DNA of 64,000 bases from Candidatus Kaiserbacteria bacterium (GCA_023267655.1 JAHFMV010000001.1:31954-95953); one strand, 5' to 3'. Counted from the first letter of the stretch, positions 3,133-31,126 are shown. The notes: generated by a model not told the origin, from the letters alone. Made by a program: numbers and translations.

Positions 3133-3570
3133 CTATTGGGTGCCGGTGTCGGGGAGTTCCGCTGGCTCCGGAGGAGCGTTGCCGTCATGCGACGACTGCT
3201 CCGCGCCCTGCGGTTGCGGGTTGTCGTTTGCTGCGGGTGGGATGAGCACCAATGGTGTTGACGAGGATACATCTAATAGAGAGGACGGTGCGACTGGGGG
3301 TGTGCTGGTCGCGGCATCAACCGGTGTGGTAGTGGTTGGGGTGTCCGCATGCATCTCCAATGCGGATGAGCCGCTCGGCGCCCCCGCGCCGTCTCCTACC
3401 GGCGTTGTGATGCTGGCGGCTGATGATTGGCTTCCTCGAAACACCGCTTCGAATTGCTCCGGCGTGACGCAGGTCGAGCCGACGCAGAGTTCGTCGGTGT
3501 TCACGCGGCCGAAATTTCCCACCTTGGCGAAGAAGTCGGTGATGCCGTCTGAGGCGGAAACCGAGCCACG
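3133..3570 (-). CDS. C-terminal tail module homologous to the C-terminus of the 1959-aa giant protein; possibly a frameshifted continuation of the 613-aa gene
   Basis: The frame is open from 3570 with a GTG start at 3522. The peptide …GITDFFAKVGNFGRVNTDELCVGSTCVTPEQFEAV…GAPSGSSALEMHADT…PPAANDNPQP aligns with the giant's tail …GIGEVFARVFRAKDALCINDTCVNEDQLKAM…GAPGGSSALEIHADT…PPAANDNEPN. A 40-nt stretch of nucleotide near-identity lies at 3341-3380 versus 5731-5770. Confidence 0.4.
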   Translation of the reverse strand, partial: RGSVSASDGITDFFAKVGNFGRVNTDELCVGSTCVTPEQFEAVFRGSQSSAASITTPVGDGAGAPSGSSALEMHADTPTTTTPVDAATSTPPVAPSSLLDVSSSTPLVLIPPAANDNPQPQGAEQSSHDGNAPPEPAELPDTGTQ

Positions 3571-3613
3571 TCACCAAGGCAACTTTGCAGACCTGCAAAA
3601 ATGCGTCGCTGAC

Positions 3614-5455
3614 TCAACTACAGTGGGCGAGTGAAGCACGTGTTCTAGGACCGACGGCGCCGTAGCCGGTCGTCGTCGAGGAACCGCTTGCGACAATTTC
3701 TTTGGAACGTTGGTACATCTGGACAGCGGTTTGTGTCAGCCTTCCAAAATAGCCGGTGTCGTTGCCCGGAACTAGAAGATGTCGTCCAATGAGATGCCGT
3801 TGCAGCATCGCCACGTCTGTGCCACGGAACCCAACGGAAAGATTGCGCGCGAGCACCGGACACGCGCCTGCGAGTTGCGGGGGAGAGGAGGAAGCGAGGA
3901 CCTGAACATCTGGAATTGCCGGCGGCGGCATTGTCAGCGGCATCGGATTGGATGAAGGCGGCGTGGCAGAAGAGGGAGGCGTTGCAATGGCTGGAACGGC
4001 AGGCGTACCCGGAGTCGGGGTAACCGGGCTCGAAGGTGATGCGGGCGTCAGCGACCGCCACCTGGCGTCATACTCTGCTTGCATGGCCGCGATCGTATCG
4101 CGCACCGACTTCGTGCCATATGCGGTCGTGATCACGTCGTCATAGCGATACGGAAAAATGACGTACTTCGCGTGGTAGGGATGCGGATCGACTGAAGAGC
4201 TTGGGCGCAGTGTGATCGTGTGCAGGTTCGCAAACTTGATGACTCCGTCGTTCGCTCCTTGCGCGACAGTGTACGAAACGGAGCGCGTATCATTCTTGAG
4301 CGTCGGGTCATAAAACCACGCGATCGTAACGTCGTCAGAAGAAGGACCGGAAGCGTTCTCAAACGTGACCCAGCGGAGGTCGATCTGAGGGAAGCCGGAG
4401 TTGTACCCCTGGTTCATTTGGGTGATTGAAGGGATCTCGACTTGCGCGACACCGCTCGGCGATGGCGTGAAGTACCGGCGATAGCCGCTGGTAAAGTAGA
4501 AGGTCGGCAGTTCAAAGAAGCCATTGCGCGTCTTTGCTCCTGCTCCCTTGTTCTCGATGGTGATGTCGTATGCGAGATAGTTGTCAGAAGCAGAGACGGA
4601 CTGTGCGAGATGCAACGTGTCTGCAGCATTCCAAGGTCCCGCATAACTCGGCCCGTAGTCCCAGTTCATCATGGTCATGTCGCCAAAGTCGACGTGGTTT
4701 TGCGCAAGGCTACATGATTGATCTGCAAAGCCGTCGCAGGTGATCGTGGGTGCGTTCGAGCCGGTCGCGACGATCGGAACCATGCTCGTTTGGTTGCCGA
4801 CGTACGTGCAGAAAGCACCGGCTTGAGTCGGATTCCAGTAGCCCTGATGCACGTCGCATGAACTTGCGGTGCCAACTGCACGCGCCATAGCGTTCGCGTC
4901 AGCTTCGTCCTGATCGTGGAACGCGACTTGCAAAGCGGCGCCCATGTTGGCGTGCAGGGCGTTGTGCGGCATCGGATCTTGCAGGGAGGTGCCGACGGCA
5001 CGTTTGCTGTAAAACTCGTAGGTCGCTCCGGTGTTGCGGTCGAGCTTCGCGCTGTAGGCCGACTTGTCGATCGATATCAGACGGTTTTCCGAAAATGCTG
5101 AGTAGTAGGGATCAAGCGTCACGGCCGACGAAACAAGGGTGTCCTTGAAGTCGGGGGGCGGCGCGAGCGTCGTACAGTCAGCTCCAATATCCCACAAGCG
5201 TACCAAGATGTTGGAGCCGGGCGTGCCGACCGGAAGCGGCTTCTTGAAGAGACATAATCCCGATCCGTGATCGGCGAGCGTGCAGCGATTTTGGAAATCG
5301 TTGGCGTCGGTGCCTACGAACCACACGTCTGCCGTGACTGGCGTATTTGGGCAGCCTGGGTACTGCGCCGCGAGCTGTGCTCCCACTGAATTGGCTCGTT
5401 GGGACAACAGGACCGGTTCAATCCAAGATGCTTGTGCAAAGGACGAGGCCGGCAC
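3614..5455 (-). CDS. secreted protein with a C-terminal peptidoglycan-binding domain (PG_binding_1-like) and a Pro/Thr-rich linker
   Basis: 613-aa ORF. The C-terminal LQRHLIGRHLLVPGNDTGYFGRLTQTAVQMYQ matches the PGBD consensus. An N-terminal signal-peptide-like stretch (…GTLILSSVIGATLVVPASSFA|QA) lies upstream of the track's GTG start and has no canonical ATG/GTG/TTG. Confidence 0.7.
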   Translation of the reverse strand: MPASSFAQASWIEPVLLSQRANSVGAQLAAQYPGCPNTPVTADVWFVGTDANDFQNRCTLADHGSGLCLFKKPLPVGTPGSNILVRLWDIGADCTTLAPPPDFKDTLVSSAVTLDPYYSAFSENRLISIDKSAYSAKLDRNTGATYEFYSKRAVGTSLQDPMPHNALHANMGAALQVAFHDQDEADANAMARAVGTASSCDVHQGYWNPTQAGAFCTYVGNQTSMVPIVATGSNAPTITCDGFADQSCSLAQNHVDFGDMTMMNWDYGPSYAGPWNAADTLHLAQSVSASDNYLAYDITIENKGAGAKTRNGFFELPTFYFTSGYRRYFTPSPSGVAQVEIPSITQMNQGYNSGFPQIDLRWVTFENASGPSSDDVTIAWFYDPTLKNDTRSVSYTVAQGANDGVIKFANLHTITLRPSSSVDPHPYHAKYVIFPYRYDDVITTAYGTKSVRDTIAAMQAEYDARWRSLTPASPSSPVTPTPGTPAVPAIATPPSSATPPSSNPMPLTMPPPAIPDVQVLASSSPPQLAGACPVLARNLSVGFRGTDVAMLQRHLIGRHLLVPGNDTGYFGRLTQTAVQMYQRSKEIVASGSSTTTGYGAVGPRTRASLAHCS

Positions 5456-5537
5456 GACAAGTGTTGCGCCAATGACGGACGAAAGAATGAGAGTGCCGTG
5501 GGTCAGATACCGAATATGGTATCACGCATCCGGGCAC

Positions 5538-8500
5538 TTACTCGTTGACAGCTGTGGGTGTGGCCACATCGACGTTGGGCTCATTGTCGTTCGCGGCTGG
5601 TGGAACAGGTGGATCATTCTCCACTGCTCCCTCCTCGCTTCCCGCAGTGCCATCTCCGGTCTCGGTCGGAGTGGTGGGGCCGGTGCTGGTTGCGGTCGGG
5701 GAACTATCCGTCGACGGCGTCGTTGACGCGGTGTCCGCATGTATCTCCAATGCGGATGAGCCGCCGGGCGCTCCAGCTGATCCTCCCGGTCCTGTTGTTG
5801 CAGCGCCGGCGGCTGATGCTGAGAGCATCGCTTTGAGCTGGTCTTCATTGACGCATGTGTCGTTGATGCAGAGTGCATCCTTTGCGCGGAAGACGCGTGC
5901 AAATACTTCGCCGATGCCGTTGGTGGCGTCGGCGAGCCACTGTGTCAGCCGCGCAAAGAGGGAAGCGAAGAAGCGGCTGGTGAAGGTGCCTTCCGGGATT
6001 TCGGGCGTGGTAGTCGCGAGGTCTTCGAGTTTGAGGTTGAGGTCTTGGATCGCCTTTGCGAGGAGGGGCGTGATGCGGCCGTAGTCAACGCTCCACGGCG
6101 TCGAGGTTGCCCCGAGCGGGTCGATGCCGTTGTCGCCGTTGGTGGTCACGGCCCACGGGAAGACCTGTTGCAATTCCTGCGCGATGAAGCCCGTGGTCGT
6201 CGCGTGTGCCGGGTCGGTGATGAAGTCGAAGTCGCGCACCGTGAGACGCATCAGCGCGTCCAGCCCCAGCGTCGTCGTCGCGATGTTCTCTTTGATGCGG
6301 CGATCCGAAGAGGTGTTGTAAGAGACGATGCTTTCATTTTGCGCGATGTTGCCTGCCACCCCGCCCGAGGTATTTAGGAACAACACCGACGAGCCGCTAT
6401 AACTGGCACTCGTGCTCCTCATTGTAATGGCTTGTTGTGTGCTAGCGTTCCAACTTAAATATAATTTTGATCCATCGGAAGTTGCGCCGATGCCGACGTT
6501 GCCGGCGCTGTTCGCGTTGAGCGAAAGTGTCGACCCTTCAATTGCAAGTGGCTTATATACGGCTCCCGCACGGTCGTAAGCGCGGACCTGGCCTGACGTT
6601 CCGTCCCACGTAAGCTCCGTGCCGACACCGTTCGTTGGTGCCACCTGACTCGTCGCGCGTATCGTGCCAAAGACGTCCAATTTTCCGGTTGGAGTAGTTG
6701 TGCCGATGCCGACGTTGCCGCCGCCCGTGACAACAAAATGCGTGGCGGTCGAGGAGCCGATCACAAATTCAGGGACGCCACTGCCGAGGGCATTTGGATT
6801 GACGGAGAGGAGGGCCCACGGACTTGTCGTGCCGATGCCGACGTTGCCGGCGTTCAATGTCATGACATCGCCACCGGTGCGGGTGTAGAGACGGATTTGA
6901 TCCGTTTGCGACGTGGGCCGGTAAATTCCTCCCGCTTCGAGACTATCCGACTGGAACGACAGTGCACTCAAAGATGCGTTAGGTGAATTTATAACTGAAT
7001 ACGTATTGCCTGTGCTCGAGACCACTAATGTCTTGGCGGGCGACGTGGTGCCGATGCCGACGTTGCCGCTGGAGTTAACGAGGAAGTAGGTGGCCGTGCT
7101 GGAGCCGATGGCGAAGGAGTTGATGCCTGCGGCTGCATGCACGCTCAGCTGCGCCCACGGGGACGTGGTGGCTATTCCGAATTTCCCGGCGCTGTATGCC
7201 GAGCCGTCGTTGTTCACCTGGAAGAGAGTAGTCGACGCGGAGTTCGCGACGAGGAATGATTGCGTTGAAGCCGATGTGTCAGAGCCCCAGAGCGTGAGTT
7301 TAGAGTATGGGGTGGAGGTGCCGATGCCGACGAGGTCGGTGCTATCGGCGAGGAATGATTGTGTGTTGTCGTTTTGCCAGCCGCCGGCGGTGGCGTTTAC
7401 GGGTGCGATGAGGGCGCCGGTGAAGTAGGTCGCAGCTGCAGTACCGTCAATTATTGTCCCGTCAGTAGTGCCACGTGCTTCGATATAGTCCGTTGTGCCG
7501 TTCATATCAACAACGGCTGTTGCCATGCCCGTGGCGTCAAAACTACTGCCGCGATAACGGCCAACCCCAACTGGGATCGCATTTTTGTATATTGATCCAT
7601 CGCAGTATGCGACTGAAACGGACTGGCCAAAATCTCCGCAACGAACCGAGAGAGTGATGATGTACTTGCCTGGGACTGTCGGCGTGAATTTGTTCGAGGC
7701 GAAATTGTTATTGGTGTCGAATGTCTCTGTGGACCAGGTCAAAGCAGTGTCGACGTTCGCCGACACCGTCTGATCCGTCCCGTTCTTGTTCACACTAAAA
7801 CTCGGCCCACTGGTAGCGGTCGTGACGCCCTGCCACGTGCCGCCGGAGTTCTTGAACTCGAGCATGCCCGCGTTGTCGCGGAAGCCGTAGCCCGAGGTGC
7901 CTTCGGTCGCGCCGAAGTTCAGATAACCGCTTGCCGGGAAAAGCGCGTTGCCGCTCGCCGTGAACGTCGTCGTCGCCGTGCCGCCGAAGTATGCGCTGTA
8001 TGCAGAGAGCATTGTCGTCGAAGCTCCGCCGTTGAAGAGCGTGAGCGTTGTTGTTGCGCTCGTCCCTGCGACCGCGTGGGTAAAGGGATCGCCGCCCGAG
8101 CCGGAGCCGCATGCGGACGCATTTGCCGAGACCGTGCCGTCGCTACCCACTTGCAAGCAGCGCGTTCCCGTCCCGCCTGTGTTCGAGATCACGAGCGCCG
8201 TCGTCGATGCGGTCGTAGCGGAGAGCATCGTTGTCGATGCGAAGGGGATTGAAAGTGCCGTGCCCGCGGGTGCGGCGAAGTTGATGGTGAGATTTGATCC
8301 GCCAACGAGTGCACCGGCAGTTCCGGAGAACGAAAGCGCGGTGCCGGCCGACAAGGAACTTGTCGCGACCGATTGATACGCAGTGCTACCGCCGTACAAG
8401 AGTTGTGAGACGGGAGCGGTCGTGGTGCCGGTACCACCTTTCGCGATTGTGAGCGTTCCCGTGATTGTCGAGAGCGTGGAGGTTGCGATCCACGACGGCT

Positions 8501-11417
8501 TGCCGTTTTGGAGCGTGAGCACCAGGCCGTCAGTGGAAGAGGCAAGCGTGGTGAGCGAGCTTGCGGAGTTCGCGTAGAGAAGATCACCGGAGGTGAACGA
8601 CGAGAGACCGGTGCCACCCTTGTTTGCGGCGATCGTCGTCGCGTTCCACGTGCCTGTCCCGATCGTTCCGAGCGTCGTGACGTTCGTTGACCCTGCCCAC
8701 GTCGAGAGCGCGGTGTTCTCGACGTTGTTGAGGGCGAGCGTTGACTTGAGATTTGCGGTTGAGGTGCCGGCGAGCGTACCGGTGCCGGATGCAAAGAGGA
8801 CATCACCAAGCGTGTAAGAGGTGAGGCCCGTGCCACCGGAGGCGACACCGAGCGTGCCGCTGATGTTCGCGAGCGTCGTGGTGGATACCCATGTTGGTGT
8901 TCCAGAGACGAGCCCAAGGACTTGGCCGTTGGTACCGGCTGATGTTGTCGCGACAGGGCCGGTACCGTTGCCGAGGACGACTGCACCGCTTGCGACGTTC
9001 GCCCAGCCGGTGCCGCCGTTTGATACGCCGAGGATGCCGGTGACATTCGACGCGAGATCGACGAGTGCGGTGGTGATCGATCCCGCAGTTGCTTTGAGAA
9101 ACCCGGAGAGTGCACCGATTGAGAGGTTGCCGAAGAAGCCGCTCGTTGATGAGGCGTACGTTGCGGAGAGGTTGGTGGTCGAGGCGGTGCCGAGTGTAGC
9201 CTTGCCGGTCACGTCGAGCGTGCCGGCGATCGCGACATTGCCTGCCGTGTCGATCGTCGTCGATGCGGTCGCACCGAACTTCGCTTGGAGGGCGGAGAGA
9301 AGTGTTGAAGATGCTTGTTGAATATTGGTGACGTACGTCGTGGTTGTCGGCGCGAGGAAGTTGCCGGAGACTTCCCACGACTTGCCGAAAAGAGATGACA
9401 CGGCAGCGTAATCCGTGCCGGCGACGGCCGAGGTGACTTGGCCTCCCGTTGTTGTTTTCAGGAGTGAGCCACTGTTGATGCCGGAGATCCACAAGTTGGT
9501 GGAGCTCGCGGTTGTTGCCGTGATCATTGTTGTGGAGGCGAAAGGAAGCGAGCTCGCGATGCCGTCGCCGCGGATTGTGGTGGTGGCGGTGCGGCCGATA
9601 GCGACGTAGTCGAAGGCATCGAGCCGCGTTGTTGTTGCGTTCGTCGCAACGAGGGTGGTGGATGTGAGGTTAGTGATTGTCGCCGCGACGGATGAGAGTG
9701 TGTCGATGATGCCCGTTGTGAAGCGGCCGAGTGTCGCGAAAAGATTTGTCGATGTCGCATTGGTCGCTGTGGCGTTGGTGAAATCCGCGTTCACGAAGTG
9801 CGAGGTCGATGAGGCGAAGAGACCGGATTGCGCCCAGATGATGGATGAGGTCGCGGCGGCGAGTTGTCCGTAGTTCGAAAGGAACGTGAAGGGTGACGCG
9901 GAACCGACCGCAGTGTCGTCCGATCCGCAGATCACATTGCCGTTTGCATCGGTCTGCAGAAGTTGTCCCGACGACGAGCAATCGAGGCCGGAGAGTGTGA
10001 GACCGCCGGCGAGACGGATGCCGTTTGCAAATGTCGATGTTGCTGTTGTTGACGTGACATTGAGTGCGGTTGTTTGCAGACCCGCGCCGAAGGTCGAGGT
10101 TGCGCTGCCGAGAATTGTTGTCGTTGCGGTGCGGCCGACAAAGATGCCATCCAGTGATGAGAGTGCGGTGGTTGATGCGCCGCCACCCAAGAGGACGAGT
10201 GAGGTGGTTGCGCTTTGTCCTGCGACCGCATGCGTCCACGCATCGTACGATGCAAGACCGCCACCACCGCTCGTGATGCCGAGCGATGAAGTGGCAGCAA
10301 GATTATAGCCGCCGGAAGAATTTCCCAATAACAGTTGACCGTATGTCGGAGACGCTGATGTTGCGGTGCCGCCTTTCGCGATTGCGAGAACGCCGGAGAA
10401 ATCCGTTGCCGTGATTGATCCGCCGGTGATCGTTGCACCACTGATCGTGCCGCCATCGATTGTGGGGGAGTGGAGTTTAGTGTCTGTGAGTTCTTCGATG
10501 CGACCGACGCTGCCTACGGTTTGGTAGATCGTCTGGCTTTCGGAATGTGATGCCGCGGCGACGCTCGCGATTTGTGATTGGAGCGATGTTGCGAGTGCGG
10601 TCATGCGTGCATCCAGTAGAGCGGCGTTGATCCCACCTTCGGTGACGGTGCGGACGGTTTCGCGGATGCGTTCGATGACCGGATTGTTGACCACTGTTAG
10701 AGAGCGCTGCGCCTCTAACGTGGCAGGTTTGGTTGTTGGGGATGACCCTTTCTCTGAAGAGGTTGAGAGCGTTGTTGCTGGTGGTGGCGGCGCTCCGGTT
10801 GGTGGTTGCAGATGTTGTTGCGTCGAAGGTGTTGCGATTTCTGTGGGCGAACAGTTTCCGATGATCGGGCACACCGCGTTGAAAACATTTGATGCAAGCG
10901 CATCGATCCACGGAAGCGATGCGACGGCTGCGAGTTGCGATTGGATATTTTCCGGTGCGTGTGTTGCTGCGTCGACGGCTGCGGCGAATTTTTGTGGCGC
11001 GATGTTTTGAAAGGCGAGGGCGCCGGATGCCATGACCGCGAAGAGCGTAAGTGTTGCGAGAAATGCAGTGCCCGCGGCACGCACGCGTTGTGCGCGTTTG
11101 ATGTGTTGTTTGAAGCGGTCGTTGAGTTCGCGGTGTGGTGCGACGGTGATTGGAGATGTTACGGCGTGGCCGTTGGCACGCTCCTCTTTGCGGAGTTCGC
11201 GAGTTCTCTCGCGCAATGCATCTTTTCGGCGGGCTTGGTTCGCGCGCCATTCTGAAAGTGACGCAGGATTGACGTACCACTCGCGGCCTTCAAGCCTGCC
11301 GTGGACGACGCCCTTGCGACATAGGCGGCTGATGTAGTCAGCGGAAATTTCGACACCAGTTGCGGCGTCTCTCACGGAAACGAAGCGCACACCGGCCACA
11401 ATAATTTCAGATGACAT
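5538..11417 (-). CDS. giant (1959 aa) membrane-anchored tail-fibre-like surface protein with N-terminal excisionase-like HTH, one TM helix, GNVGIGT(T/A)SP beta-repeats and a Peptidase S74 intramolecular-chaperone domain
   Basis: ATG at 11415-11417. Residues 1-60 resemble the HTH_17/excisionase fold (…VSVRDAATGVEISADYISRLCRKGVVHGRLEGREWYV…). TM helix AAGTAFLATLTLFAVMASGALAF. Four or more GNVGIG(T/A)TSP repeats. SSDRRIKENI…GFIAQELQQVFPWAV matches the phage endosialidase/tail-fibre chaperone (S74) autoproteolysis module, about 6310-5990 nt. Confidence 0.85.
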   Translation of the reverse strand: MSSEIIVAGVRFVSVRDAATGVEISADYISRLCRKGVVHGRLEGREWYVNPASLSEWRANQARRKDALRERTRELRKEERANGHAVTSPITVAPHRELNDRFKQHIKRAQRVRAAGTAFLATLTLFAVMASGALAFQNIAPQKFAAAVDAATHAPENIQSQLAAVASLPWIDALASNVFNAVCPIIGNCSPTEIATPSTQQHLQPPTGAPPPPATTLSTSSEKGSSPTTKPATLEAQRSLTVVNNPVIERIRETVRTVTEGGINAALLDARMTALATSLQSQIASVAAASHSESQTIYQTVGSVGRIEELTDTKLHSPTIDGGTISGATITGGSITATDFSGVLAIAKGGTATSASPTYGQLLLGNSSGGYNLAATSSLGITSGGGGLASYDAWTHAVAGQSATTSLVLLGGGASTTALSSLDGIFVGRTATTTILGSATSTFGAGLQTTALNVTSTTATSTFANGIRLAGGLTLSGLDCSSSGQLLQTDANGNVICGSDDTAVGSASPFTFLSNYGQLAAATSSIIWAQSGLFASSTSHFVNADFTNATATNATSTNLFATLGRFTTGIIDTLSSVAATITNLTSTTLVATNATTTRLDAFDYVAIGRTATTTIRGDGIASSLPFASTTMITATTASSTNLWISGINSGSLLKTTTGGQVTSAVAGTDYAAVSSLFGKSWEVSGNFLAPTTTTYVTNIQQASSTLLSALQAKFGATASTTIDTAGNVAIAGTLDVTGKATLGTASTTNLSATYASSTSGFFGNLSIGALSGFLKATAGSITTALVDLASNVTGILGVSNGGTGWANVASGAVVLGNGTGPVATTSAGTNGQVLGLVSGTPTWVSTTTLANISGTLGVASGGTGLTSYTLGDVLFASGTGTLAGTSTANLKSTLALNNVENTALSTWAGSTNVTTLGTIGTGTWNATTIAANKGGTGLSSFTSGDLLYANSASSLTTLASSTDGLVLTLQNGKPSWIATSTLSTITGTLTIAKGGTGTTTAPVSQLLYGGSTAYQSVATSSLSAGTALSFSGTAGALVGGSNLTINFAAPAGTALSIPFASTTMLSATTASTTALVISNTGGTGTRCLQVGSDGTVSANASACGSGSGGDPFTHAVAGTSATTTLTLFNGGASTTMLSAYSAYFGGTATTTFTASGNALFPASGYLNFGATEGTSGYGFRDNAGMLEFKNSGGTWQGVTTATSGPSFSVNKNGTDQTVSANVDTALTWSTETFDTNNNFASNKFTPTVPGKYIITLSVRCGDFGQSVSVAYCDGSIYKNAIPVGVGRYRGSSFDATGMATAVVDMNGTTDYIEARGTTDGTIIDGTAAATYFTGALIAPVNATAGGWQNDNTQSFLADSTDLVGIGTSTPYSKLTLWGSDTSASTQSFLVANSASTTLFQVNNDGSAYSAGKFGIATTSPWAQLSVHAAAGINSFAIGSSTATYFLVNSSGNVGIGTTSPAKTLVVSSTGNTYSVINSPNASLSALSFQSDSLEAGGIYRPTSQTDQIRLYTRTGGDVMTLNAGNVGIGTTSPWALLSVNPNALGSGVPEFVIGSSTATHFVVTGGGNVGIGTTTPTGKLDVFGTIRATSQVAPTNGVGTELTWDGTSGQVRAYDRAGAVYKPLAIEGSTLSLNANSAGNVGIGATSDGSKLYLSWNASTQQAITMRSTSASYSGSSVLFLNTSGGVAGNIAQNESIVSYNTSSDRRIKENIATTTLGLDALMRLTVRDFDFITDPAHATTTGFIAQELQQVFPWAVTTNGDNGIDPLGATSTPWSVDYGRITPLLAKAIQDLNLKLEDLATTTPEIPEGTFTSRFFASLFARLTQWLADATNGIGEVFARVFRAKDALCINDTCVNEDQLKAMLSASAAGAATTGPGGSAGAPGGSSALEIHADTASTTPSTDSSPTATSTGPTTPTETGDGTAGSEEGAVENDPPVPPAANDNEPNVDVATPTAVNE

Positions 11418-11889
11418 GATTATTCGGAAAGCCTAGGTATTGCCTAGAATTTCCGTCATTGGCTCATGATAGCGTGCCACCGTCTGGCAGTGTGCGGTTA
11501 TCCACTTTCAAGTGGAGCGCGGGATGGTATCGCGCTAGCTGGTACAGCGGAGCCGGAGTCCACATCGTGCATACCGTATGCGCCGATTTTCCTCGGAAAT
11601 GAGTGTCACCACGACCATCACGCGAAGCCTTCAGTCGATGTGGCTTGTGATCTCGACCAGCGGTTCTCGAGCGGCTTCTATCGCCAGCTTATGCGCACTT
11701 TACATCCGAGATTCGTTGTTCATATATACCCGGAATAGCTAGCATTTACATGATATCTCGGTATCTCGGGTCATAGTACGGGAGGCGGCCAAATTGCGGT
11801 GCACAACGCCATAACGCAATTGAGTGCGCCAGCGCTGGAGCGACACGCGCTCGTCGATTTGGAGTTGGCGGAAGTTACACTGTAGAGAT

Positions 11890-11930
11890 AAAGCAGGTGC
11901 ACGTTTTCCAGATGACGAGCGCCTTCATGG
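11890..11930 (+). repeat. decayed duplicate of the 3' end of the monooxygenase gene (12744-12790)
   Basis: Identical 21-mer gcacgttttccagatgacgag at 11898-11918 and 12748-12768, with about 85% identity over about 36 bp. The reverse translation MKALVIWKTCTCF… compares with GMDALVIWKTCIYLITNMF in the intact gene. Confidence 0.6.
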
Positions 11931-11955
11931 TGCGAAATCATGGTATAATCGCGAA

Positions 11956-12243
11956 ATGCGCATTACGGAAGCACAGGCACGGCTGCTGAAAGAAGGGGTC
12001 CGCGAATACCTGCCACAGGCGAGTGTGTATCTGTTCGGGTCGCGTGCGGACGATGCGAAGCGTGGCGGCGACATTGACGTGCTTGTCGTAGGGGAGCGGC
12101 CGCTTCAACCTTTAGAGAGCAGCCGCGTCAAGGCGAGATTTTATGAACGTTTCGGAGAGCAGAAAATCGACATTGTGAGTTTCGCAGAGGGCGAACATAC
12201 CACGTTCCGCGATCTGATAGAATCCGAGGCGGTGCCTCTCTGA
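11956..12243 (+). CDS. mntA: MntA-like nucleotidyltransferase antitoxin (second copy)
   Basis: MRITEAQARLLKEGVREYLPQASVYLFGSRADDAKRGGDIDVLVVGE carries the GS…D.D motif. It is preceded by TGgTATAAT at 11941-11949, only 6 nt before the ATG, which implies a leaderless mRNA. Confidence 0.7.
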   Translation: MRITEAQARLLKEGVREYLPQASVYLFGSRADDAKRGGDIDVLVVGERPLQPLESSRVKARFYERFGEQKIDIVSFAEGEHTTFRDLIESEAVPL

Positions 12244-12707: not shown

Positions 12708-14057
12708 TCAGTGCGCTTTGCGAAACATGTTTGTGATGAGGTAGATGCACGTTTTCCAGATGACGAGTGCATCCATGCCAAAGAGCCGCGCTACGTGGCG
12801 CTCTTTGCGATAGCGTTTATAGGCGACCGCGTAGGACATCGTCGTGTGGACGACGAGTGTGTAGAGGGAATGGAAATTTTCGGGAAAATATTTCTCGAGG
12901 ATCATTTCGACGTTTGAGCGAGAGACAAACAGCGGCATTTCGTAGCGGTCTTTGAGGTCGATGAAGCGCGCTTTGCATACGTCGGCGAGAACGTCGGTGT
13001 CCGGCTTACGCCGCGCTTCGAAAATTTGGAACACGGTTTCGATGTCCGGGTAATACGTGTCGAGGCATTCGGCAAAAATGCGACAGTCTTCAAATGCAGC
13101 GTTGATTCCTTGACCATAAAAAATAGTGACCGCATGCGCGGCGTCTCCGAGCAGAATGCAAAAGTCACGGTAATACCATTTCGATGTGTAGAGCGAGGTG
13201 AACGGCGTCGATGGCTGCGTAAGGAAATCGTTGACGTGGGGTGCAAGATGCGGATACAAATCGGGGAAGTGTTCGGTACAAAATCTTTCGAATGATTCTG
13301 TCGATTGGATCGATTCAAAACTGTCCGGACCGGTAAGCGGAAGCGTGATCGTACAGGTAAAAAAGTTGCCTCGGTTCGGAATGCCGAAAATTGCTGCTTT
13401 TTTCTTTGACCATAGATGGAAGGCGTTCTTTTGGAACGGAATTGATCCGTCGGTCGGTGCTGGCACGTACATGTTTTTATACCCCCAATCCATGACGTCG
13501 AGTTTCGCACGGAGGTGCCCGGCCTGTTCCATTTCTTTGCGAACCACCGAATGGATGCCGTCCGCGCCGAGGAGGAGCTCTACTTTTTTCGTGGTATGCG
13601 CTTTTGTTAGTTGGTTTTCAAATTCTATTTCACGCGTCTCGAAATCAATGTGGACGCAGCGCTCATTGTAGTGCGTGTGAATCGAAGAATATTTTTTCAT
13701 TTCTCGGACGAGCGCGCAGTTTAAGTCATTGCGATTGATCGACCACTCGGCGAGTCCTTGCTTTTCGCCATAGGCCTGATACAGAAGTCCGTTTTTCTGG
13801 TGGATGATGCGGCCGGCTTCACGCGTGCAGAGTTTTTTCACTTCGTCCCACATCTGCACTTCCTGCAGCGCACGGATGCCGCGCACGCAGAGCGACTGGT
13901 TGATTGATTTGTACGAAACCACGGGGAGGTTTTCGATGCTTTCACGAGATTCATATATTTCGACGATGAAGTTTCTTCGCGCAAGATAGATCGCAAGCAG
14001 TGAGCCGCCCATGCCAGCGCCGATTATCGTGACCTTCTTGTCAGGTGTCTTTATCAT
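12708..14057 (-). CDS. FAD-dependent monooxygenase, kynurenine 3-monooxygenase-like
   Basis: N-terminal GAGMGGS dinucleotide-binding motif; SIN…RG, LLLGADGIHSVVR and LLGDAAHAVTIFYGQGINAAFEDC match KMO/UbiH-family blocks. Confidence 0.7.
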   Translation of the reverse strand: MIKTPDKKVTIIGAGMGGSLLAIYLARRNFIVEIYESRESIENLPVVSYKSINQSLCVRGIRALQEVQMWDEVKKLCTREAGRIIHQKNGLLYQAYGEKQGLAEWSINRNDLNCALVREMKKYSSIHTHYNERCVHIDFETREIEFENQLTKAHTTKKVELLLGADGIHSVVRKEMEQAGHLRAKLDVMDWGYKNMYVPAPTDGSIPFQKNAFHLWSKKKAAIFGIPNRGNFFTCTITLPLTGPDSFESIQSTESFERFCTEHFPDLYPHLAPHVNDFLTQPSTPFTSLYTSKWYYRDFCILLGDAAHAVTIFYGQGINAAFEDCRIFAECLDTYYPDIETVFQIFEARRKPDTDVLADVCKARFIDLKDRYEMPLFVSRSNVEMILEKYFPENFHSLYTLVVHTTMSYAVAYKRYRKERHVARLFGMDALVIWKTCIYLITNMFRKAH

Positions 14058-16174
14058 GCAATGAATGCGTTTTTGAACGCTGCCGAGAATTTCTGTACAT
14101 ATACTTCAAATTCATCGCGTGTCAGGTGGAATCCTGGCATCGGCGTTCCCGTTGTAAGATTGGCGTCGACTATGTAGAGTTTGCCGTCATCCGCGTCTCG
14201 TAGGCAATCGAGCGCACCGAAATCAATACCCATTTTGTTGCAAAAGAGCAGGATTTTCTGTTGCTCGTCCTTCGCGATGTAGTCATCAAGAGGCACCATC
14301 GTCGACGTCTGCGTGTTATCAAAGCGATCGAATGCCGAGCGAATGCGGTACATCATGAACGGAATTTTTCCACCAACTACTTTCACGCGAAGATCAGCGA
14401 CACGATCTCCTTCGCGATTGTTGATGAGTTTCTGATAGATGTAGCCCGGCTGCGGTTCAAGGGGTGCTAGAACAACTTTTCCGTCGTGCTGGGCATTTTC
14501 GTCAGACTTTTGGACGCACTCACCACGGTGCGTGCGCGGATCAATTTTCATGCCGTAGCCGAAGACTTCAGAAAATACTTCCTCTACTTTTTCCTTGCTA
14601 ATGTCGCGCGCTGCGCCGTTGATAAAGCGGCCGCGTCGCGCGAGTTCTTTTTCAGTTTCGTCCTCGGTGCGGATCGTAATGTCTTTGAAGGACATCGCGA
14701 TATCGTACTGCGTGGCCAGATCGTTCGTCATCCTAAGCCCAAGCTCATGGCAGATCGTGTAGTGGACATAGTAGTACTTCGGCAGATCAGGATAAAAGAG
14801 CATGGTGCCGGTTGCGCCGTTTTTGCGCGCGCGGCGGAATCGTTTCCAGCACGTGTATTTGACCCAGAGTTCGTAGGAAATTGCAGCGTAACGCTCTTTC
14901 AGTCGCAATGGGAATCGATACAAGAAAAGTCCGACAAGCGCCGCAGCGGCATTGCCGAGGATCCATGCGATGCCAATACCGGTAAGACCTTGCCCCGTTA
15001 GAAACCTTGTTTCTAACGGGGCGGGGGAAATAAATAAGTAACTTAATCCGATTGTTGTTGTCGCAAAGACGCTATTCACAATGATAAGCGACGTGGAATC
15101 CTTCTTAACTTGGAAGTACGAATTGATGATTGATGATGCGCTGACGACGAGGCCGGCGAGGGCGACGAGTATGAGGAACGTTGTGCCGCCCGCGGCATAC
15201 TGCGCGCCGAAAATATGCAGGATGAAATCGCTCGCGAAGATAAGGACGATGATCGCCGGTGCCATGAAGAGCGTGATGATGCGGATTGCGCTCCGGATAT
15301 GTGCGTCAAACGCCATCTCGTCGTTCGAGCCTTCTGCAAACAGTGCGCGTGTCGTTGCGTACGGGATGACATACAAAAGATTCCCGATCATCATCGCGAT
15401 GTAGTAGTACGCCGCAGGTGCGGGACCGAGTTTGTGTGTGATAAGAAGCGGAAGGACGCTTGCGGGGAGCAGGTTGAGCGAGCTTGCCGCATAATTGCCG
15501 GCCGAATAGTGCCAGACTCTCGCCATGATATCGGTATGGACTTTCAAGCTTGGCCGGTAGTCGAATTTCCACACCAGAGCGGCGATGCTCAAGAGAAATC
15601 CGATTCCTTGCGCGATGCCCGCCGCCGCAAAGATACCGATCGCGCCAAAAGAAACGAAGAAAAAAGGGAACAGCAGCCGTGAAGCCGTGAACAGCGTATT
15701 GATGCCGAGGATGAATTTCGTTTGCCGGCGCGAGAGGAACACAGAATCAGTCAGTGTGTTGAGTGCGGTGAGGATGGTGAATAGGATGAAGCCCGCGATG
15801 TACAGCGTGTTCGAGCGCAGAAAAAGCAGCTTTGGGGCAAGGAAGGGAATGAATACTACAAACAGCGTCGAGAGGATTCCGGCTGCGATCGCGACGAGCA
15901 CAAGCGCTGTGTTGATGGTGTCGCTCGGGCGCGTATCGCCGGGAAGGAAGCGCACGAGCGCGGCGTTGAAACCAATCAGACTGATGATGGATATCAGCGT
16001 CATCACCGAAATGAGCGTTGTCGCAAAGCCGACATCTTCCGTCGGATACAAGTGCGCATTGATGAGCCAGAAGAAAAAGCCGAACGCCGCGAGGACCGCG
16101 GTCGCGGACATCAAATAGATTGAGTTCCGGAAAAGACTGTCTTTAAAAAATTTGTGGAATAGAGAGAGAATCAT
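14054..16174 (-). CDS. polysaccharide flippase (MOP/Wzx-like, ~12-14 TM) fused to a C-terminal ATP-grasp-like domain
   Basis: 706-aa ORF. The N-terminal 430 aa are polytopic and match Wzx/polysaccharide_biosynthesis topology. The C-terminal ~270 aa contain …GKIPFMMYRIRSAF…MGIDFGALDCLRDADDGKLYIVDANLTTGTP…, consistent with an ATP-grasp C-domain. There is no stop between the two parts. Confidence 0.65.
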   Translation of the reverse strand: MILSLFHKFFKDSLFRNSIYLMSATAVLAAFGFFFWLINAHLYPTEDVGFATTLISVMTLISIISLIGFNAALVRFLPGDTRPSDTINTALVLVAIAAGILSTLFVVFIPFLAPKLLFLRSNTLYIAGFILFTILTALNTLTDSVFLSRRQTKFILGINTLFTASRLLFPFFFVSFGAIGIFAAAGIAQGIGFLLSIAALVWKFDYRPSLKVHTDIMARVWHYSAGNYAASSLNLLPASVLPLLITHKLGPAPAAYYYIAMMIGNLLYVIPYATTRALFAEGSNDEMAFDAHIRSAIRIITLFMAPAIIVLIFASDFILHIFGAQYAAGGTTFLILVALAGLVVSASSIINSYFQVKKDSTSLIIVNSVFATTTIGLSYLFISPAPLETRFLTGQGLTGIGIAWILGNAAAALVGLFLYRFPLRLKERYAAISYELWVKYTCWKRFRRARKNGATGTMLFYPDLPKYYYVHYTICHELGLRMTNDLATQYDIAMSFKDITIRTEDETEKELARRGRFINGAARDISKEKVEEVFSEVFGYGMKIDPRTHRGECVQKSDENAQHDGKVVLAPLEPQPGYIYQKLINNREGDRVADLRVKVVGGKIPFMMYRIRSAFDRFDNTQTSTMVPLDDYIAKDEQQKILLFCNKMGIDFGALDCLRDADDGKLYIVDANLTTGTPMPGFHLTRDEFEVYVQKFSAAFKNAFIA

Positions 16175-19733: not shown

Positions 19734-20594
19734 TTAAAAATGCTTGCGAACAATCGCGTCTGTCAGTGTTGCGACTCTTTTCATTGCGGCGACGTCGTGG
19801 ACGCGGACGATATCGACACCTCGATCGATTAAAAGCGCGACCGCAGCCGCAGTTCCTTCAAGACGCTCGTGCGCGGGAAGGTTAAGAGTGTATCCGACAA
19901 ATGACTTACGCGATGGGCCGGCAAGGATAGGATAGCCAAGCTTTGTAAGCTCTCGGAAACGGTTCACCAGTTCCAGATTTTGCTCGACGGTTTTCCCAAA
20001 ACCGATTCCCGGATCGATAATAATATTTTCTTTTTTTATGCCTGCAGTGAGAGCGTCGTCGATTGAAACTTGTAACTCACGTTCTATATCCGTCATGAGA
20101 TCGCTGTATTCGACACCGGCATAACGTCCTCCAAGTGAATTGTGCTTAGTAACATCTTTCTCGCGACTACGATTGTGCATCACGACGATGGGTACCCCTT
20201 TGCTCGCAGCAACATGTGCCATGTTTTTGTCGCGTTGCAGACCCCACACGTCGTTAATCATACCCGCGCCTGCTTCAACCGCGTGTCGCGCAACTTCTGA
20301 TTTGTACGTGTCGATTGAAATGGGGATCCGTACTTTCGTCGCGAGACCTTGTATCACCGGGATCACTCGCGCAAGTTCTTCTTCTTGCGAAATCGGCACG
20401 CTGCCGGGGCGTGTGGATTCGCCGCCAACATCAAGAATATCTGCCCCTTCGGCTTCCAATCGTGCACCTTGTTCAATTGCCCCCGCGATCCAATTGTCAT
20501 CCTGAAGCACGCCATCCCCAGAAAAAGAATCAGGCGTGACATTAATGACGCCCATGATATATGTCTTCGAACCCCACGTGAAGTTTTTGTTCAT
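19734..20594 (-). CDS. folP: dihydropteroate synthase
   Basis: Pterin-binding DHPS blocks: MGVINVTPDSFSGDG, ADILDVGGESTRPG, ISIDTY, MINDV. Confidence 0.9.
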   Translation of the reverse strand: MNKNFTWGSKTYIMGVINVTPDSFSGDGVLQDDNWIAGAIEQGARLEAEGADILDVGGESTRPGSVPISQEEELARVIPVIQGLATKVRIPISIDTYKSEVARHAVEAGAGMINDVWGLQRDKNMAHVAASKGVPIVVMHNRSREKDVTKHNSLGGRYAGVEYSDLMTDIERELQVSIDDALTAGIKKENIIIDPGIGFGKTVEQNLELVNRFRELTKLGYPILAGPSRKSFVGYTLNLPAHERLEGTAAAVALLIDRGVDIVRVHDVAAMKRVATLTDAIVRKHF

Positions 20595-21076
20595 ATCTGG
20601 TGCGCAGTGCGAACGACCCCTCGTGATGAAATCTTTTTGAACAGATATCGCATCGTCAATCGCAGCCGTGGATGAACAAGATCGGGCGCGATATCGGTAA
20701 GAGGTGCAAGAACAAATGCGCGTTCATGCATCCGTGGGTGGGGGATCGTGAGTGAGGGAGAATCCATTTGCTGGTCGTCATACAGCACAATGTCGAGGTC
20801 AATGACACGCGGGCCATTGCGAAAAGTCTTCGTGCGTCCGACTGCCTCCTCTACACTCTTTAGATGCGCAAGGAGTTTTTCCGGCGACAAGTCAGTCCGC
20901 ACTCGCACAACCGCGTTGCAGAATGCCGGTTGTTCGCGTACATATTGCGGCTCGGTCTCATAGATCGGCGATAGTGCTTCAACCACCACGCCCGGCTCCA
21001 GCCTCTGTAGAGCTTCACGCATATGACGAGCCCGGTCGCCGAGATTTGAGCCGAGCGCTATGTATACGATCGCCAT
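20591..21076 (-). CDS. folK: 2-amino-4-hydroxy-6-hydroxymethyldihydropteridine pyrophosphokinase (HPPK)
   Basis: MAIVYIALGSNLGD…; GPRVIDLDIVLY; ERAFVLAPL. The stop overlaps the folP start (4-nt overlap). Confidence 0.85.
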   Translation of the reverse strand: MAIVYIALGSNLGDRARHMREALQRLEPGVVVEALSPIYETEPQYVREQPAFCNAVVRVRTDLSPEKLLAHLKSVEEAVGRTKTFRNGPRVIDLDIVLYDDQQMDSPSLTIPHPRMHERAFVLAPLTDIAPDLVHPRLRLTMRYLFKKISSRGVVRTAHQI

Positions 21077-21142
21077 GGACATCAAGCCTATCATTACGCT
21101 GCGATTTTGCGGAAATACCACCGATGCTATAGTGCGGGCACT

Positions 21143-21847
21143 ATGCAGGTAAAGGCTGTACGGACACGCATTTTTAAAGAGGGGGAAGATCTTCTCACCT
21201 TCATTCGTGCCCATATTCCATCGCTCAAGGATGGTTCAATACTTTGCGTTACGTCGAAGATTGTGGCGCTTTCAGAAGGGCGGACAGCGCCGGTCGCGCA
21301 TAAAACAAAACTCATAGCCGAAGAAAGTGAATGGGCTATGCCAACGAAATATGCGTGGTTAACGATTAAAGATGGCACGGTGATGGCGACCGCAGGAATC
21401 GATGAATCGAATGCGAATGGAAAGATAATTCTTTTGCCAAAAGATAGTTTTGTCACCGCAAGTTCCTTGAGAAAAAGATTGCTAAAACTATACGGCATCA
21501 AACATCTCGGAATGATGATCACTGATAGCCGAGTATTGCCGCTTCGTTCTGGCGTGACCGGAGTTGCCGTCGGCTACGCGGGATTTAAAGGCGTCATGGA
21601 CTATCGGGGACAAGCGGATATTTTTGGCCGGAAATTGAAAATGACGCAAGTGAATGTCGCTGATGCTCTTGCGACGTTTGCGGTTCTCGAAATGGGCGAA
21701 GGGAATGAGCAACGCCCACTCGCGGTCGTGAGCGGAGCATCCGTGGTTTTCGTCGTAAAAGTAAATCGCAATGAATTGAAAATCGATATTCAGGATGACT
21801 TATATCGCCCACTTTTCGACAAGTTGCCGAAAAAAGTACGCCGTTGA
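21143..21847 (+). CDS. CofE-like gamma-glutamyl ligase family protein (candidate FolC2-type dihydrofolate/folylpolyglutamate synthase)
   Basis: MQVKAVRTRIFKEGEDLL…CVTSKIVALSEGR…AGIDESN… matches F420-0:gamma-glutamyl ligase family blocks. It is divergently adjacent to folK-folP. Confidence 0.65.
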   Translation: MQVKAVRTRIFKEGEDLLTFIRAHIPSLKDGSILCVTSKIVALSEGRTAPVAHKTKLIAEESEWAMPTKYAWLTIKDGTVMATAGIDESNANGKIILLPKDSFVTASSLRKRLLKLYGIKHLGMMITDSRVLPLRSGVTGVAVGYAGFKGVMDYRGQADIFGRKLKMTQVNVADALATFAVLEMGEGNEQRPLAVVSGASVVFVVKVNRNELKIDIQDDLYRPLFDKLPKKVRR

Positions 21848-21934
21848 CCTTTTATGCATCCTACGATAGGTTTCGAGCGAGACTTCTTCTTGTTGCAGGA
21901 GATCAGGGTGAAAAAGAAAGCCAAGGGGCCGATC

Positions 21935-22912
21935 ATGGCCCATATTCTTCGTAAAATCGCGCCACGAATCGGTGCAAAGGTCGTGATGGAGCCGAAATGG
22001 GGTATTGTCGGGCAAATCAATTTTGCGAGTGGTAGGAGACGATACTTTCGCTTTTCGAGTATTGATTTGAATTCGCTTGGGGCGACGGAAATCGCGAAAG
22101 ACAAGGACTACGCAAGCTTTTTCCTGAAGCGCATGGGATATCCAACTATTCAGGGCAAGACGTTTTACGCGAAGACTTTTTGCGAGCAAATCGGATCCGA
22201 CCAAGATATCGACGCGGCATACTTGTATGCCCGAAAAATCGGCTTTCCCGTAATCGTTAAGCCCAACAGTGCGAGTCAGGGAAAAGGCGTTGCGCTCGTA
22301 CATACGCGCCGTGAATTTTACCGGCGTATGCGTGCAATCTTCAGAATCGATCGTGTTGCGCTCGTGCAGAGGCCGGTCGCTGGAAATGATTACCGTATTG
22401 TAGTCCTGGATACGAAGGTAATATCGGCATATGAGCGGATTCCGCTCAATGTCACCGGCGACGGCGTCTCAACAATCCGGCAACTGCTCGAGAAGAAGCA
22501 GGACGCGTTCATTCGAAGTGGGAGAGATACGAAACTCAAGTTTGATGATCCTCGGATATCTGCAAAGCTTTCTCGCGTGAAATTGAGGGTAGATTCTGTT
22601 CTTGAGAAGGGTCGGAAAATATATCTACTCGATAATGCAAATCTTTCTGCTGGTGGTGATTCTGTCGACGTGACATCGCAGATGCATCCCGAGTTCAAAG
22701 AACTCGCGATACGAATTACAAAAGATATGGGACTGCGTCTGTGCGGCGTCGACCTGATGGTCGTAGGGGATATTTCGCATCCCGTGAAGAAGTATTGGAT
22801 CCTTGAGATAAATGCCGCTCCAGGGCTTGACCACTATGCCGCAAGCGGCAAACAACAAGAGAAGATCGTGGAGGATCTGTACCTTGAAGTTCTTAAGAGT
22901 ATGGACGCATGA
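21935..22912 (+). CDS. ATP-grasp ligase (RimK/cyanophycin-synthetase-like glutamate ligase family)
   Basis: VIVKPNSASQGKGV, NDYRIVVLD, LCGVDLMV…ILEINAAPGL. Confidence 0.7.
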   Translation: MAHILRKIAPRIGAKVVMEPKWGIVGQINFASGRRRYFRFSSIDLNSLGATEIAKDKDYASFFLKRMGYPTIQGKTFYAKTFCEQIGSDQDIDAAYLYARKIGFPVIVKPNSASQGKGVALVHTRREFYRRMRAIFRIDRVALVQRPVAGNDYRIVVLDTKVISAYERIPLNVTGDGVSTIRQLLEKKQDAFIRSGRDTKLKFDDPRISAKLSRVKLRVDSVLEKGRKIYLLDNANLSAGGDSVDVTSQMHPEFKELAIRITKDMGLRLCGVDLMVVGDISHPVKKYWILEINAAPGLDHYAASGKQQEKIVEDLYLEVLKSMDA

Positions 22913-22917
22913 CCGCG

Positions 22918-22950
22918 AGGCGCCGGAGCAATCCGGCGCCGCTTTTTATT
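22918..22950 (+). terminator. rho-independent terminator
   Basis: ggcgccggagcaatccggcgcc followed by gcttttta. Confidence 0.5.
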
Positions 22951-30181: not shown

Positions 30182-31126
30182 ATGAAAAAAGTCGTACGAA
30201 TCGGCGGCGGCTCAAGCGGCTATACGATCCTGCGCGGTCTAAAGCAATACCCCTTAGATATCACGGCGATTGTCAACATGTTCGATTCGGGTGGTTCTGC
30301 AGGAGTGCTTCGCGACGAGCTCGGTATTTTACCTCCCGGCGATGTTCGTCGCGCACTTGCCGCACTTGCCGACGGCAAGCAAGGCACAATTCTGCGTGAA
30401 TTGTTTAACTTCAGATTTAAAGAGGAAGGGTCGGTGAATGGTCATAGTTTCGGCAATCTGTTCCTCGCGGCACTTTCGTCAATCTACGGTAGCGATATTG
30501 AAGCGATTCGCAAGGCATCACAAATTCTCAATCTCAAAGGGAAAGTCTTGCCGGTCTCACTCGATAAATCGCATATTCATGCGACACTTGAAGATGGCAC
30601 AAAAATAGTCGGCGAGACCAATATTGATATCCCCAAACACGACGGTAGCATTCCAATCAAAAAAATATTCCTAGAACCACCCGCAAAAATTTTTGATGAA
30701 GCGAAACAGGCAATTCTCGATGCTGATATTATTGTCATCGGCCCCGGCGATTTGTATACGTCAATCATTCCGAATCTTCTCGCGAAAGGCGTCCCCGAAG
30801 CATTGCAAAAGAGTAAGGCGAAGAAAGTGGTGGTCTGTAACCTCATGACCAAGTGGGGAGAAACCCACGGTTTTTGCGCGTCCGACATGGTCAAGGAACT
30901 CTTGCGCTATAGCGGACTCAAACGATTTGATTATGCGATTTGTAACACGAAAGAGCCGAGCCAGAAACTCATCAAGGCCTACGAAAAAGAAAAGAAGTAT
31001 CCAATGAAATGCGATGCCGACCTTTCAAAATACGCAAAAGAAATAGTCACCGGCGACTTTTTCTCCGAGGCCGATATCGCGCGTCATGATGCGGATAAAT
31101 TGGCGAAAGTAATCGCAGATCTTTGA
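30182..31126 (+). CDS. YvcK/CofD-family protein (UPF0052; gluconeogenesis factor / 2-phospho-L-lactate transferase-like)
   Basis: MFDSGGSAGVLRDELGILPPGDVRR is the family signature. Confidence 0.8.
   Translation: MKKVVRIGGGSSGYTILRGLKQYPLDITAIVNMFDSGGSAGVLRDELGILPPGDVRRALAALADGKQGTILRELFNFRFKEEGSVNGHSFGNLFLAALSSIYGSDIEAIRKASQILNLKGKVLPVSLDKSHIHATLEDGTKIVGETNIDIPKHDGSIPIKKIFLEPPAKIFDEAKQAILDADIIVIGPGDLYTSIIPNLLAKGVPEALQKSKAKKVVVCNLMTKWGETHGFCASDMVKELLRYSGLKRFDYAICNTKEPSQKLIKAYEKEKKYPMKCDADLSKYAKEIVTGDFFSEADIARHDADKLAKVIADL

Follow-up and report, generated by a model that had tools for sequence, protein, structure and literature searches.

Within 64,000 nucleotides of Candidatus Kaiserbacteria DNA (GCA_023267655.1 JAHFMV010000001.1:31954-95953; hereafter the window, from whose first letter all positions are counted), the genes at 19734-22912 form a folate locus in which folK and folP stand divergently to genes for a CofE-like gamma-glutamyl ligase and an ATP-grasp ligase. 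In Parcubacteria, folate glutamyl ligase has a widespread and hitherto undescribed partner in the ATP-grasp enzyme, a finding that rests chiefly on the gene neighbourhoods of the enzyme's relatives. That the locus as a whole encodes FolK and FolP, a FolC2-type glutamyl ligase and an ATP-grasp ligase working on the folate tail is a reading we hold with moderate confidence. The names of homologues assign the window to Parcubacteria/Paceibacterota, a setting of interest since members of the Candidate Phyla Radiation (Patescibacteria) are thought to depend on their hosts for most cofactors.

Two divergent gene pairs at the folate locus

All four open reading frames (ORFs) indicated in a first-pass annotation of this DNA were recovered, as two divergent pairs separated by 60 nt: folK-folP on the minus strand, and the CofE-family gene followed by the ATP-grasp gene on the plus strand. 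The minus-strand pair encodes a 286-aa dihydropteroate synthase (DHPS) of the Sul4 clade (folP, 19734-20594; Pterin_bind, 1.3e-78) and a 163-aa hydroxymethyldihydropterin pyrophosphokinase (HPPK; folK, 20591-21082; HPPK domain, 2.4e-42). Both proteins score above the cutoffs of their curated models, DHPS with 297 bits on TIGR01496 (cutoff 162.6) and HPPK with 149.6 bits on TIGR01498 (cutoff 54.1), which bears out the presence of the two enzymes as annotated. The stop codon of folK overlaps the start codon of folP in an ATGA at 20591-20594, making translational coupling of the pair plausible. The folK ORF spans 20591-21214 and its true start lies at 21082 (MSMAIVY...) or 21076, a choice that rests on the Pfam alignment, on a public gene call of 163 aa and on a homologue from a related contig (L170, described below).

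On the plus strand, the CofE-like gene (21143-21847) starts with the ATG at 21143 and specifies a 234-aa product identical to a public protein (P0001). The ORF of the ATP-grasp gene (21908-22912; 334 aa; Pfam RimK/Dala_Dala_lig_C) opens at 21854 with its first ATG, and its start was assigned to the GTG at 21908 on the basis of an alignment of homologues (A1) and an AGGAG box 6 nt upstream. Directly 3′ of this gene, a terminator-like hairpin (22919-22940; a 9-bp stem with 8 GC pairs, then GCTTTTTATT, the T-rich tail reaching 22949) would close the CofE-like/ATP-grasp unit. The 60-nt region between the divergent pairs (21083-21142) is presumed to be a bidirectional promoter; a sigma-70-like consensus scan of it gave no match above shuffle expectation, and a TATAGT ending 9 nt ahead of the CofE-like ATG was spotted by eye only. 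An Rfam scan of the whole window matched no family, tetrahydrofolate (THF) riboswitches included.

The CofE-like protein scores best as a FolC2-type ligase

The CofE-like protein matches PF01996 (COG1478) over its full length (2.3e-40). Among curated models it fits TIGR04132 best ('putative folate metabolism gamma-glutamate ligase', the FolC2 type), scoring 195 bits there, whereas three CofE models give 127-145 bits, all under cutoff (TIGR01916, 145 bits against 180.65). Ten Parcubacterial homologues spanning 40-65% identity behave in the same way, with TIGR04132 the best model in 10 of 10 (186-233 bits versus 128-158 bits on CofE). The placement, which rests on these hidden Markov model (HMM) scores, falls short of the 350-bit cutoff of TIGR04132 and therefore makes the protein a member of a separate Parcubacterial subfamily rather than a demonstrated FolC2 orthologue.

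The first-pass annotation had pointed to Chlamydia for a CofE homologue standing in for FolC, and the literature confirms that precedent: CT611, the COG1478 protein of Chlamydia, rescues an E. coli folC mutant and was given the name FolC2 (De Crécy-Lagard et al., PMC1971073; restated in PMC4161248). The chlamydial and window proteins share a fold family (COG1478/PF01996) and a best curated model, and FolC2 likewise clusters with folK and folP (folKP) with no F420 genes nearby. They differ in that non-orthologous replacement of FolC was shown by complementation for FolC2 (PMC1971073, PMC4161248), whereas for the window protein it is a prediction, and in that the published chlamydial cluster comprises folBPKA, folC2 and ct610 only, whereas the window gene is partnered with an ATP-grasp gene.

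Homologues of the CofE-like protein are labelled coenzyme F420-0:L-glutamate ligase by the NCBI and JGI pipelines. A genuine gamma-glutamyl ligase for F420 (or for another deazaflavin or unknown cofactor), with folate neighbours by coincidence, would agree with these names, with membership of PF01996 and with a match at 4e-29 to the A. fulgidus CofE structures, relative to which the window protein lacks a segment of about 20 residues after the EGR motif. It would also gain from the CofD-family Pfam match at 30182-31126, some 8 kb from the locus, had that gene belonged to F420 synthesis. We rejected it as an F420 gene, as it is YvcK (TIGR01826, 311 bits and above cutoff, versus 29 bits on F420_cofD), the only CofD-family gene in the window, and no cofC, cofG, cofH or fbiC was seen among the annotated ORFs of the 64 kb; the F420 genes that the first-pass annotation had named as evidence for an F420 ligase are thus absent from this interval. 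The protein moreover stays under the CofE cutoff while scoring higher on the FolC2-type model, its gene neighbours in many species are DHFR, ThyA, SHMT, FolD and folKP, and one JGI annotation (P0008) already names it dihydrofolate synthase/folylpolyglutamate synthase. We consider an F420 role very improbable. In passing, the Pfam 'CofD' match at 30182-31126 is one that is easily mistaken for an F420 gene.

Canonical FolC was sought in the window by two routes. A tblastn search of the 64 kb with two Parcubacterial FolC proteins found no Mur-ligase-type FolC, and Pfam scans together with public gene calls showed no Mur_ligase domain among the annotated ORFs, the scans covering most ORFs of at least 180 aa, with a 5,021-aa ORF outside them. 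The annotated absence of a canonical FolC near the folate genes therefore holds across the window.

The divergent CofE-like/folK(-folP) layout recurs in three other Patescibacterial contigs. In L170, from a Hainich groundwater Patescibacterium, the CofE-like gene is divergent from folK-folP on a 9.7-kb contig that also carries DHFR, ThyA, DCD, SHMT and PurN-like genes; L171 has the same divergent pair; and on the 1.8-kb P0002 contig a CofE-like protein 84% identical to that of the window is encoded divergently from an HPPK fragment, with folP unconfirmed. Clustering with folate genes is thus found in the window, L170, L171 and the P0002 layout, in the window with no F420 gene alongside. Two further contigs, L172 and L173, have folK-folP without a CofE-like gene, and the 6 kb of the contig that bears the closest CofE-like homologue (P0004) holds no folate neighbour. 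Two peculiarities of these contigs may be recorded here. The HPPK of P0002 is called as 86 aa and overlaps a 159-aa ORF that leaves the contig end, which could reflect a frameshift, a fusion with folP or an assembly error. In L170, a PIN-domain gene and a gene for a 109-aa partner, likely a toxin-antitoxin pair, are inserted between the CofE-like and DHFR genes (4076-4754).

On the long contigs of other relatives, the CofE-like gene is translationally coupled to a Vut_1 (COG1738) transporter gene, with whose end it shares 4 bp (L001 5357-6705; L003 5345-6702; L004 5396-6699; also L054, L056 and L068), and its neighbours are variously DHFR, FolD, ThyA, SHMT, PurN or PurT. The Vut_1/COG1738 family is one of queuosine-precursor uptake; because the gene here adjoins DHFR, FolD or ThyA, its position suggests an importer of folates or pterins. 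The window itself has no Vut_1 gene, and we found no link between Vut_1/COG1738 and folate in the literature searched. Unlike in Chlamydia, most Parcubacterial carriers have no folKP nearby and pair the CofE-like gene with Vut_1, which suggests salvage rather than synthesis. Taken with the curated models, this context leaves the proposal that the CofE-like protein replaces FolC partly upheld: TIGR04132 as best model and the folate genes here and in relatives speak for it, whereas the score below the TIGR04132 cutoff does not. The FolC2-type reading of the gene, as a prediction, is well supported by context and models.

The ATP-grasp protein resembles cyanophycin synthetase G domains and GshF

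For the ATP-grasp protein, the cyanophycin synthetase model (TIGR02068/NF010623) ranks first with 175-180 bits, confined to model positions 195-460, and the GshAB model second with 153 bits; RimK (65 bits), MptN (43.6), CofF (29.8) and Ddl (36-41) are all far under their cutoffs. A profile search of the PDB returned CphA2, GshAB and CphA1 at 1e-31 to 1e-37, and an AlphaFold model (pLDDT 82, pTM 0.79) has as its best folds GshF and the G domains of CphA1 and CphA2 (Foldseek E ~1e-22, TM 0.6-0.7), with RimK and Ddl at ~1e-12. The RimK/MptN/CofF affiliation given in the first-pass annotation does not survive this comparison, since the protein scores 30-65 bits there against 180 and 153 bits on CphA and GshAB, and PDB and fold matches agree; sequence profiles and modelled fold instead point to the cyanophycin-synthetase G-domain/GshF clade, CphA1/CphA2 and GshF/GshAB being the closest relatives in both sequence and structure.

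We rejected the protein as Ddl, RimK, CphA or GshAB on curated cutoffs (for Ddl, ~243-245 bits) and on domain architecture. A cyanophycin synthetase has N, G and M domains in ~870 aa and reaches at least 850 bits, whereas this is a stand-alone 334-aa protein without an N, M or glutamate-cysteine ligase domain, below the cutoffs of 850-877 (CphA) and 425 (GshAB). Its neighbours are folate genes, not cyanophycinase or glutathione genes. Public annotations call it cyanophycin synthetase or Ddl-like. Like the CofE-like protein, it has thousands of Parcubacterial homologues at 60-70% identity.

The relationship bears on chemistry. ATP-grasp modules of the CphA G-domain and GshF kind activate a peptide-like substrate by phosphorylation at its C-terminal alpha-carboxylate and join an amine or amino acid to it, and cyanophycin synthetase itself joins such an ATP-grasp (G, backbone alpha-carboxylate) to a Mur ligase (M, side-chain carboxylate).

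The ATP-grasp gene accompanies folate glutamyl ligases across Parcubacteria

Searching GTDB species genomes with the ATP-grasp alignment gave 549 confirmed relatives; the survey used the 80 top-ranked loci, each from a different species and almost all carrying Patescibacterial lineage names. In 52 of these 80 loci, the ATP-grasp gene has one or more core folate genes within 3 kb. The most frequent is the CofE-like gene (33 loci), followed by a truncated 5-formyl-THF cyclo-ligase-like (5-FCL-like) gene (14), DHFR (12), RibD_C-type DHFR (9), ThyA (6), SHMT (5), FolD (5) and canonical FolC (4), the 5-FCL-like, RibD_C and other neighbour families having been confirmed by Pfam. By a rough estimate, two given genes in a genome of ~1 Mb fall within 3 kb of each other less than 1% of the time. 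As in the window, the CofE-like gene precedes the ATP-grasp gene on the same strand in 7 loci; it is convergent in 13 and lies downstream on the same strand in 3, and in other loci one or two folate genes stand between the two. The lineages with this proximity include Kaiser-, Adler-, Taylor-, Lipton-, Wolfe-, Uhr-, Staskawicz- and Vogelbacteria. That proximity is kept through several rearrangements across many candidate classes argues for functional coupling and selection over inherited gene order.

These data establish an association: across Parcubacteria, the ATP-grasp protein is conserved as a partner of folate glutamyl ligase, and the link with folate drawn in the first-pass annotation finds strong support in synteny. 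The same annotation had taken the CofE-like/ATP-grasp pairing as a sign of something unusual in this organism; it is in fact widespread in Parcubacteria, and the rarer feature at the window locus is the presence of folK-folP, neither of which occurs within 3 kb, or within 10 kb, of the ATP-grasp gene in any of the 80 loci. In the library searched, we found no paper that links this ATP-grasp protein, Patescibacteria and folate.

Canonical FolC directly adjoins the ATP-grasp gene in four loci (L031, L078, L079 and L082), the order in L079 being ATP-grasp, then FolC. Two of the four FolC neighbours were scanned on TIGR01499 and gave 296 and 293 bits (cutoff 162.65). FolC and the CofE-like gene occur together at none of the 80 ATP-grasp loci, where ~1.7 overlaps would be expected by chance. 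The alternation of FolC and CofE-like genes at the same position looks like non-orthologous displacement in situ, and supports the CofE-like protein as the functional counterpart of FolC. Because the ATP-grasp gene adjoins either ligase, including the canonical enzyme in four species, it is an accessory partner of whichever ligase is present and stands outside the FolC replacement of which it had been annotated as part. The pairing with FolC also mirrors the G and M domains of CphA, the Parcubacterial FolC neighbours matching the C-terminal part (~670-850 of 871) of the cyanophycin synthetase model that the ATP-grasp protein matches at 195-460.

Three of the neighbours seen in the survey may be described more closely. 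The 5-FCL-like gene encodes a short protein of ~150 aa, in which the 5-formyl-THF cyclo-ligase domain is matched by its C-terminal third only. It lies directly beside the ATP-grasp gene in 14 of the 80 species (L031 5491-5955, L008, L030, L082, L084 and nine others), and its product could serve as a partner that binds folate or could be a 5-FCL in reduced form. An NlpC/P60-family peptidase gene stands beside the CofE-like/ATP-grasp pair in 8 loci (among them L038 11876-12490, L052, L020 and L036); as the NlpC/P60 family cleaves gamma-glutamyl bonds, one might imagine a folylpolyglutamate hydrolase, which is pure speculation. Lastly, a multi-pass membrane protein of 259 aa that matches neither Pfam nor NCBIfam is encoded between the ATP-grasp gene and the genes for RibD_C-type DHFR and the CofE-like protein (L012 6426-7205, L026 and L063), and is a candidate transporter of the folate module.

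A proposed division of labour on the folate tail

By family membership, FolK and FolP convert 6-hydroxymethyl-dihydropterin and p-aminobenzoate to dihydropteroate. The CofE-like FolC2-type ligase would then add the first glutamate, as dihydrofolate synthase (DHFS), and subsequently gamma-linked glutamates, as folylpolyglutamate synthase (FPGS), a role proposed because of its HMM affinity, the conserved folate synteny and the chlamydial precedent. The ATP-grasp enzyme may use ATP, via an acyl-phosphate, to place an amino acid, probably glutamate, on the alpha-carboxylate of the folate glutamyl tail. FolC2 or FolC would accordingly serve the gamma-carboxylate while the ATP-grasp enzyme serves the alpha-carboxylate.

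This alpha/gamma split is proposed by analogy with CofE and CofF on F420 and with the G and M domains of CphA, and alpha-carboxylate ligation on the folate tail is our best guess for the ATP-grasp step. CofE with CofF in F420 synthesis, and MptN in methanopterin synthesis, provide the working model of sequential tail building, in which a gamma-glutamyl ligase is followed by an ATP-grasp enzyme; NCBIfam names both CofF and MptN as alpha-L-glutamate ligases, and ATP-grasp glutamate ligases of the MyfB/MptN type act on cofactor tails (PMC8141765). As with CofE and CofF, the window encodes a CofE-family ligase and an ATP-grasp ligase together; the pair differs in its folate context, as opposed to F420 or tetrahydromethanopterin, and in an ATP-grasp of the CphA-G/GshF clade, not the RimK family.

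More tentatively, and as a possibility that we rate below even, the ATP-grasp protein would define a new folate-tail ligase family, carried by hundreds of Parcubacterial species beside FolC2-type ligase or FolC, its products being alpha-linked or alpha-capped folylpolyglutamates and its combination with FolC a free-standing counterpart of the CphA G-M didomain. Alpha-linked folylpolyglutamate chemistry was reported decades ago in E. coli and, to our knowledge, is still without an assigned gene.

Several observations weigh against the folate reading of the locus. The absence of FolC pertains to 64 kb only, out of a ~160-kb contig, and some Parcubacteria do carry FolC. The CofE-like protein (195 bits) and its ten homologues all lie below the TIGR04132 cutoff, and the similarity of the ATP-grasp protein to CofF and MptN is weak, far from their cutoffs of 300 and 350 bits. 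The mutual exclusivity of FolC and CofE-like genes is statistically weak, given four FolC loci and the small number of overlaps expected by chance. No ATP-grasp gene is near the CofE-like/folKP pair in L170 and L171. Finally, no folate gene is found within 3 kb of the ATP-grasp gene in 28 of the 80 loci, an ABC-F ATPase gene lies within 6 kb in 17, and others are near ribosomal (L11) or NusG genes.

These last counts, with a DEAD-box helicase gene near several loci and the public names cyanophycin synthetase or Ddl-like, would suit an ATP-grasp enzyme unrelated to folate, one that acts in the synthesis or modification of a peptide or protein, be it by RimK-like tailing or by making a small peptide or a glutathione-like compound, and whose neighbours merely reflect inherited gene order in compact genomes. 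We judge this unlikely. The proximity of ATP-grasp and CofE-like genes persists through at least three gene orders and orientations in many candidate classes, as selection rather than inheritance would have it, and in other species the slot next to the ATP-grasp gene is taken by FolC, 5-FCL-like or DHFR genes; Ddl, RimK, CphA and GshAB models all stay far under cutoff, and the protein has neither the N or M domain of CphA nor a glutamate-cysteine ligase partner.

L170 and L171 bear also on a different assignment within folate metabolism, according to which the ATP-grasp enzyme is itself the DHFS, placing the first glutamate on the benzoyl carboxylate of dihydropteroate or pteroate, while the CofE-like protein or FolC only extends the gamma-tail. 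DHFS needs the acyl-phosphate chemistry that ATP-grasp enzymes use, the gene shares the window cluster with folK-folP, and it partners with either type of glutamyl ligase. The two contigs, however, combine folKP with a CofE-like gene and have no ATP-grasp gene nearby, and folP and folK are missing within 10 kb from all 80 ATP-grasp loci; DHPS seems far rarer than the ATP-grasp protein in Parcubacteria, so that most carriers would have no dihydropteroate to ligate. In addition, chlamydial FolC2 needs no partner to rescue an E. coli folC mutant, and CofE itself performs both the first and the second ligation (PMC1971073). A DHFS role is, on this evidence, quite unlikely, and addition to the alpha-carboxylate of an existing glutamyl tail remains the role that we prefer.

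A chromosomal relative of the mobile Sul4 determinant

The best NCBIfam model for the window DHPS is Sul4 (NF033502), at 392 bits and below its cutoff of 600. The protein shares 60% identity with plasmid-borne Sul4 in a gap-free alignment of 280 aa, the C terminus of FolK is 51% identical to the truncated folK in the sul4 module, and the folK-folP order is the same in both; the window gene, unlike mobile Sul4, is chromosomal and has no integron or ISCR. The nearest relatives of the DHPS are Patescibacterial (up to 73-77%) mixed with Chloroflexi/Anaerolineales (67-69%). Razavi et al. found Sul4 and the DHPS of Ardenticatena to be 69% identical and proposed a Chloroflexi origin (PMC5732528), so that the Ardenticatena protein is nearer to Sul4 than is that of the window (60%).

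The GC and GC3 contents of the four genes (0.47-0.55) do not differ clearly from those of neighbouring genes, and base composition gives no clear sign of a recent transfer of folKP. A metagenome scan anchored on the DHPS collected 80 loci at 54-68% identity; folK was often present, and neither the CofE-like nor the ATP-grasp gene was found in any of the 80, which shows that the four-gene layout is not general in the DHPS clade. The Sul4-like DHPS is an environmental relative of a mobile sulfonamide-resistance gene.

Other features of the window

Three regions away from the folate locus stand out. The interval 2000-12000 (ORFs 3614-5455 and 5538-11417) has a GC content of 0.59-0.61 against ~0.51 elsewhere, and encodes a 1,959-aa protein with a Peptidase_S74 domain (endosialidase chaperone, tail-fibre-like) as well as a protein of 613 aa that has a peptidoglycan-binding domain. 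The interval may be of foreign origin or may encode surface structures. At 14054-16174 lies the gene for a 706-aa protein with a Polysacc_synt_3 flippase domain at residues 45-327 and a long C-terminal half without a Pfam match. The single 5,021-aa ORF occupies 48597-63662 on the plus strand.

Implications for folate metabolism in Parcubacteria

The window locus and its relatives outline a compact and strongly conserved folate module, made up of a transporter or folKP, a FolC2-type ligase, DHFR, ThyA/SHMT/FolD and the ATP-grasp protein. Should the CofE-like protein prove to be the folate glutamyl ligase, the name 'F420 ligase' would be wrong for thousands of database entries, in organisms that show no F420 context here. 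If the ATP-grasp protein modifies the folate tail, it would be a new enzyme of one-carbon cofactor metabolism, and its frequent annotation as cyanophycin synthetase would be corrected.

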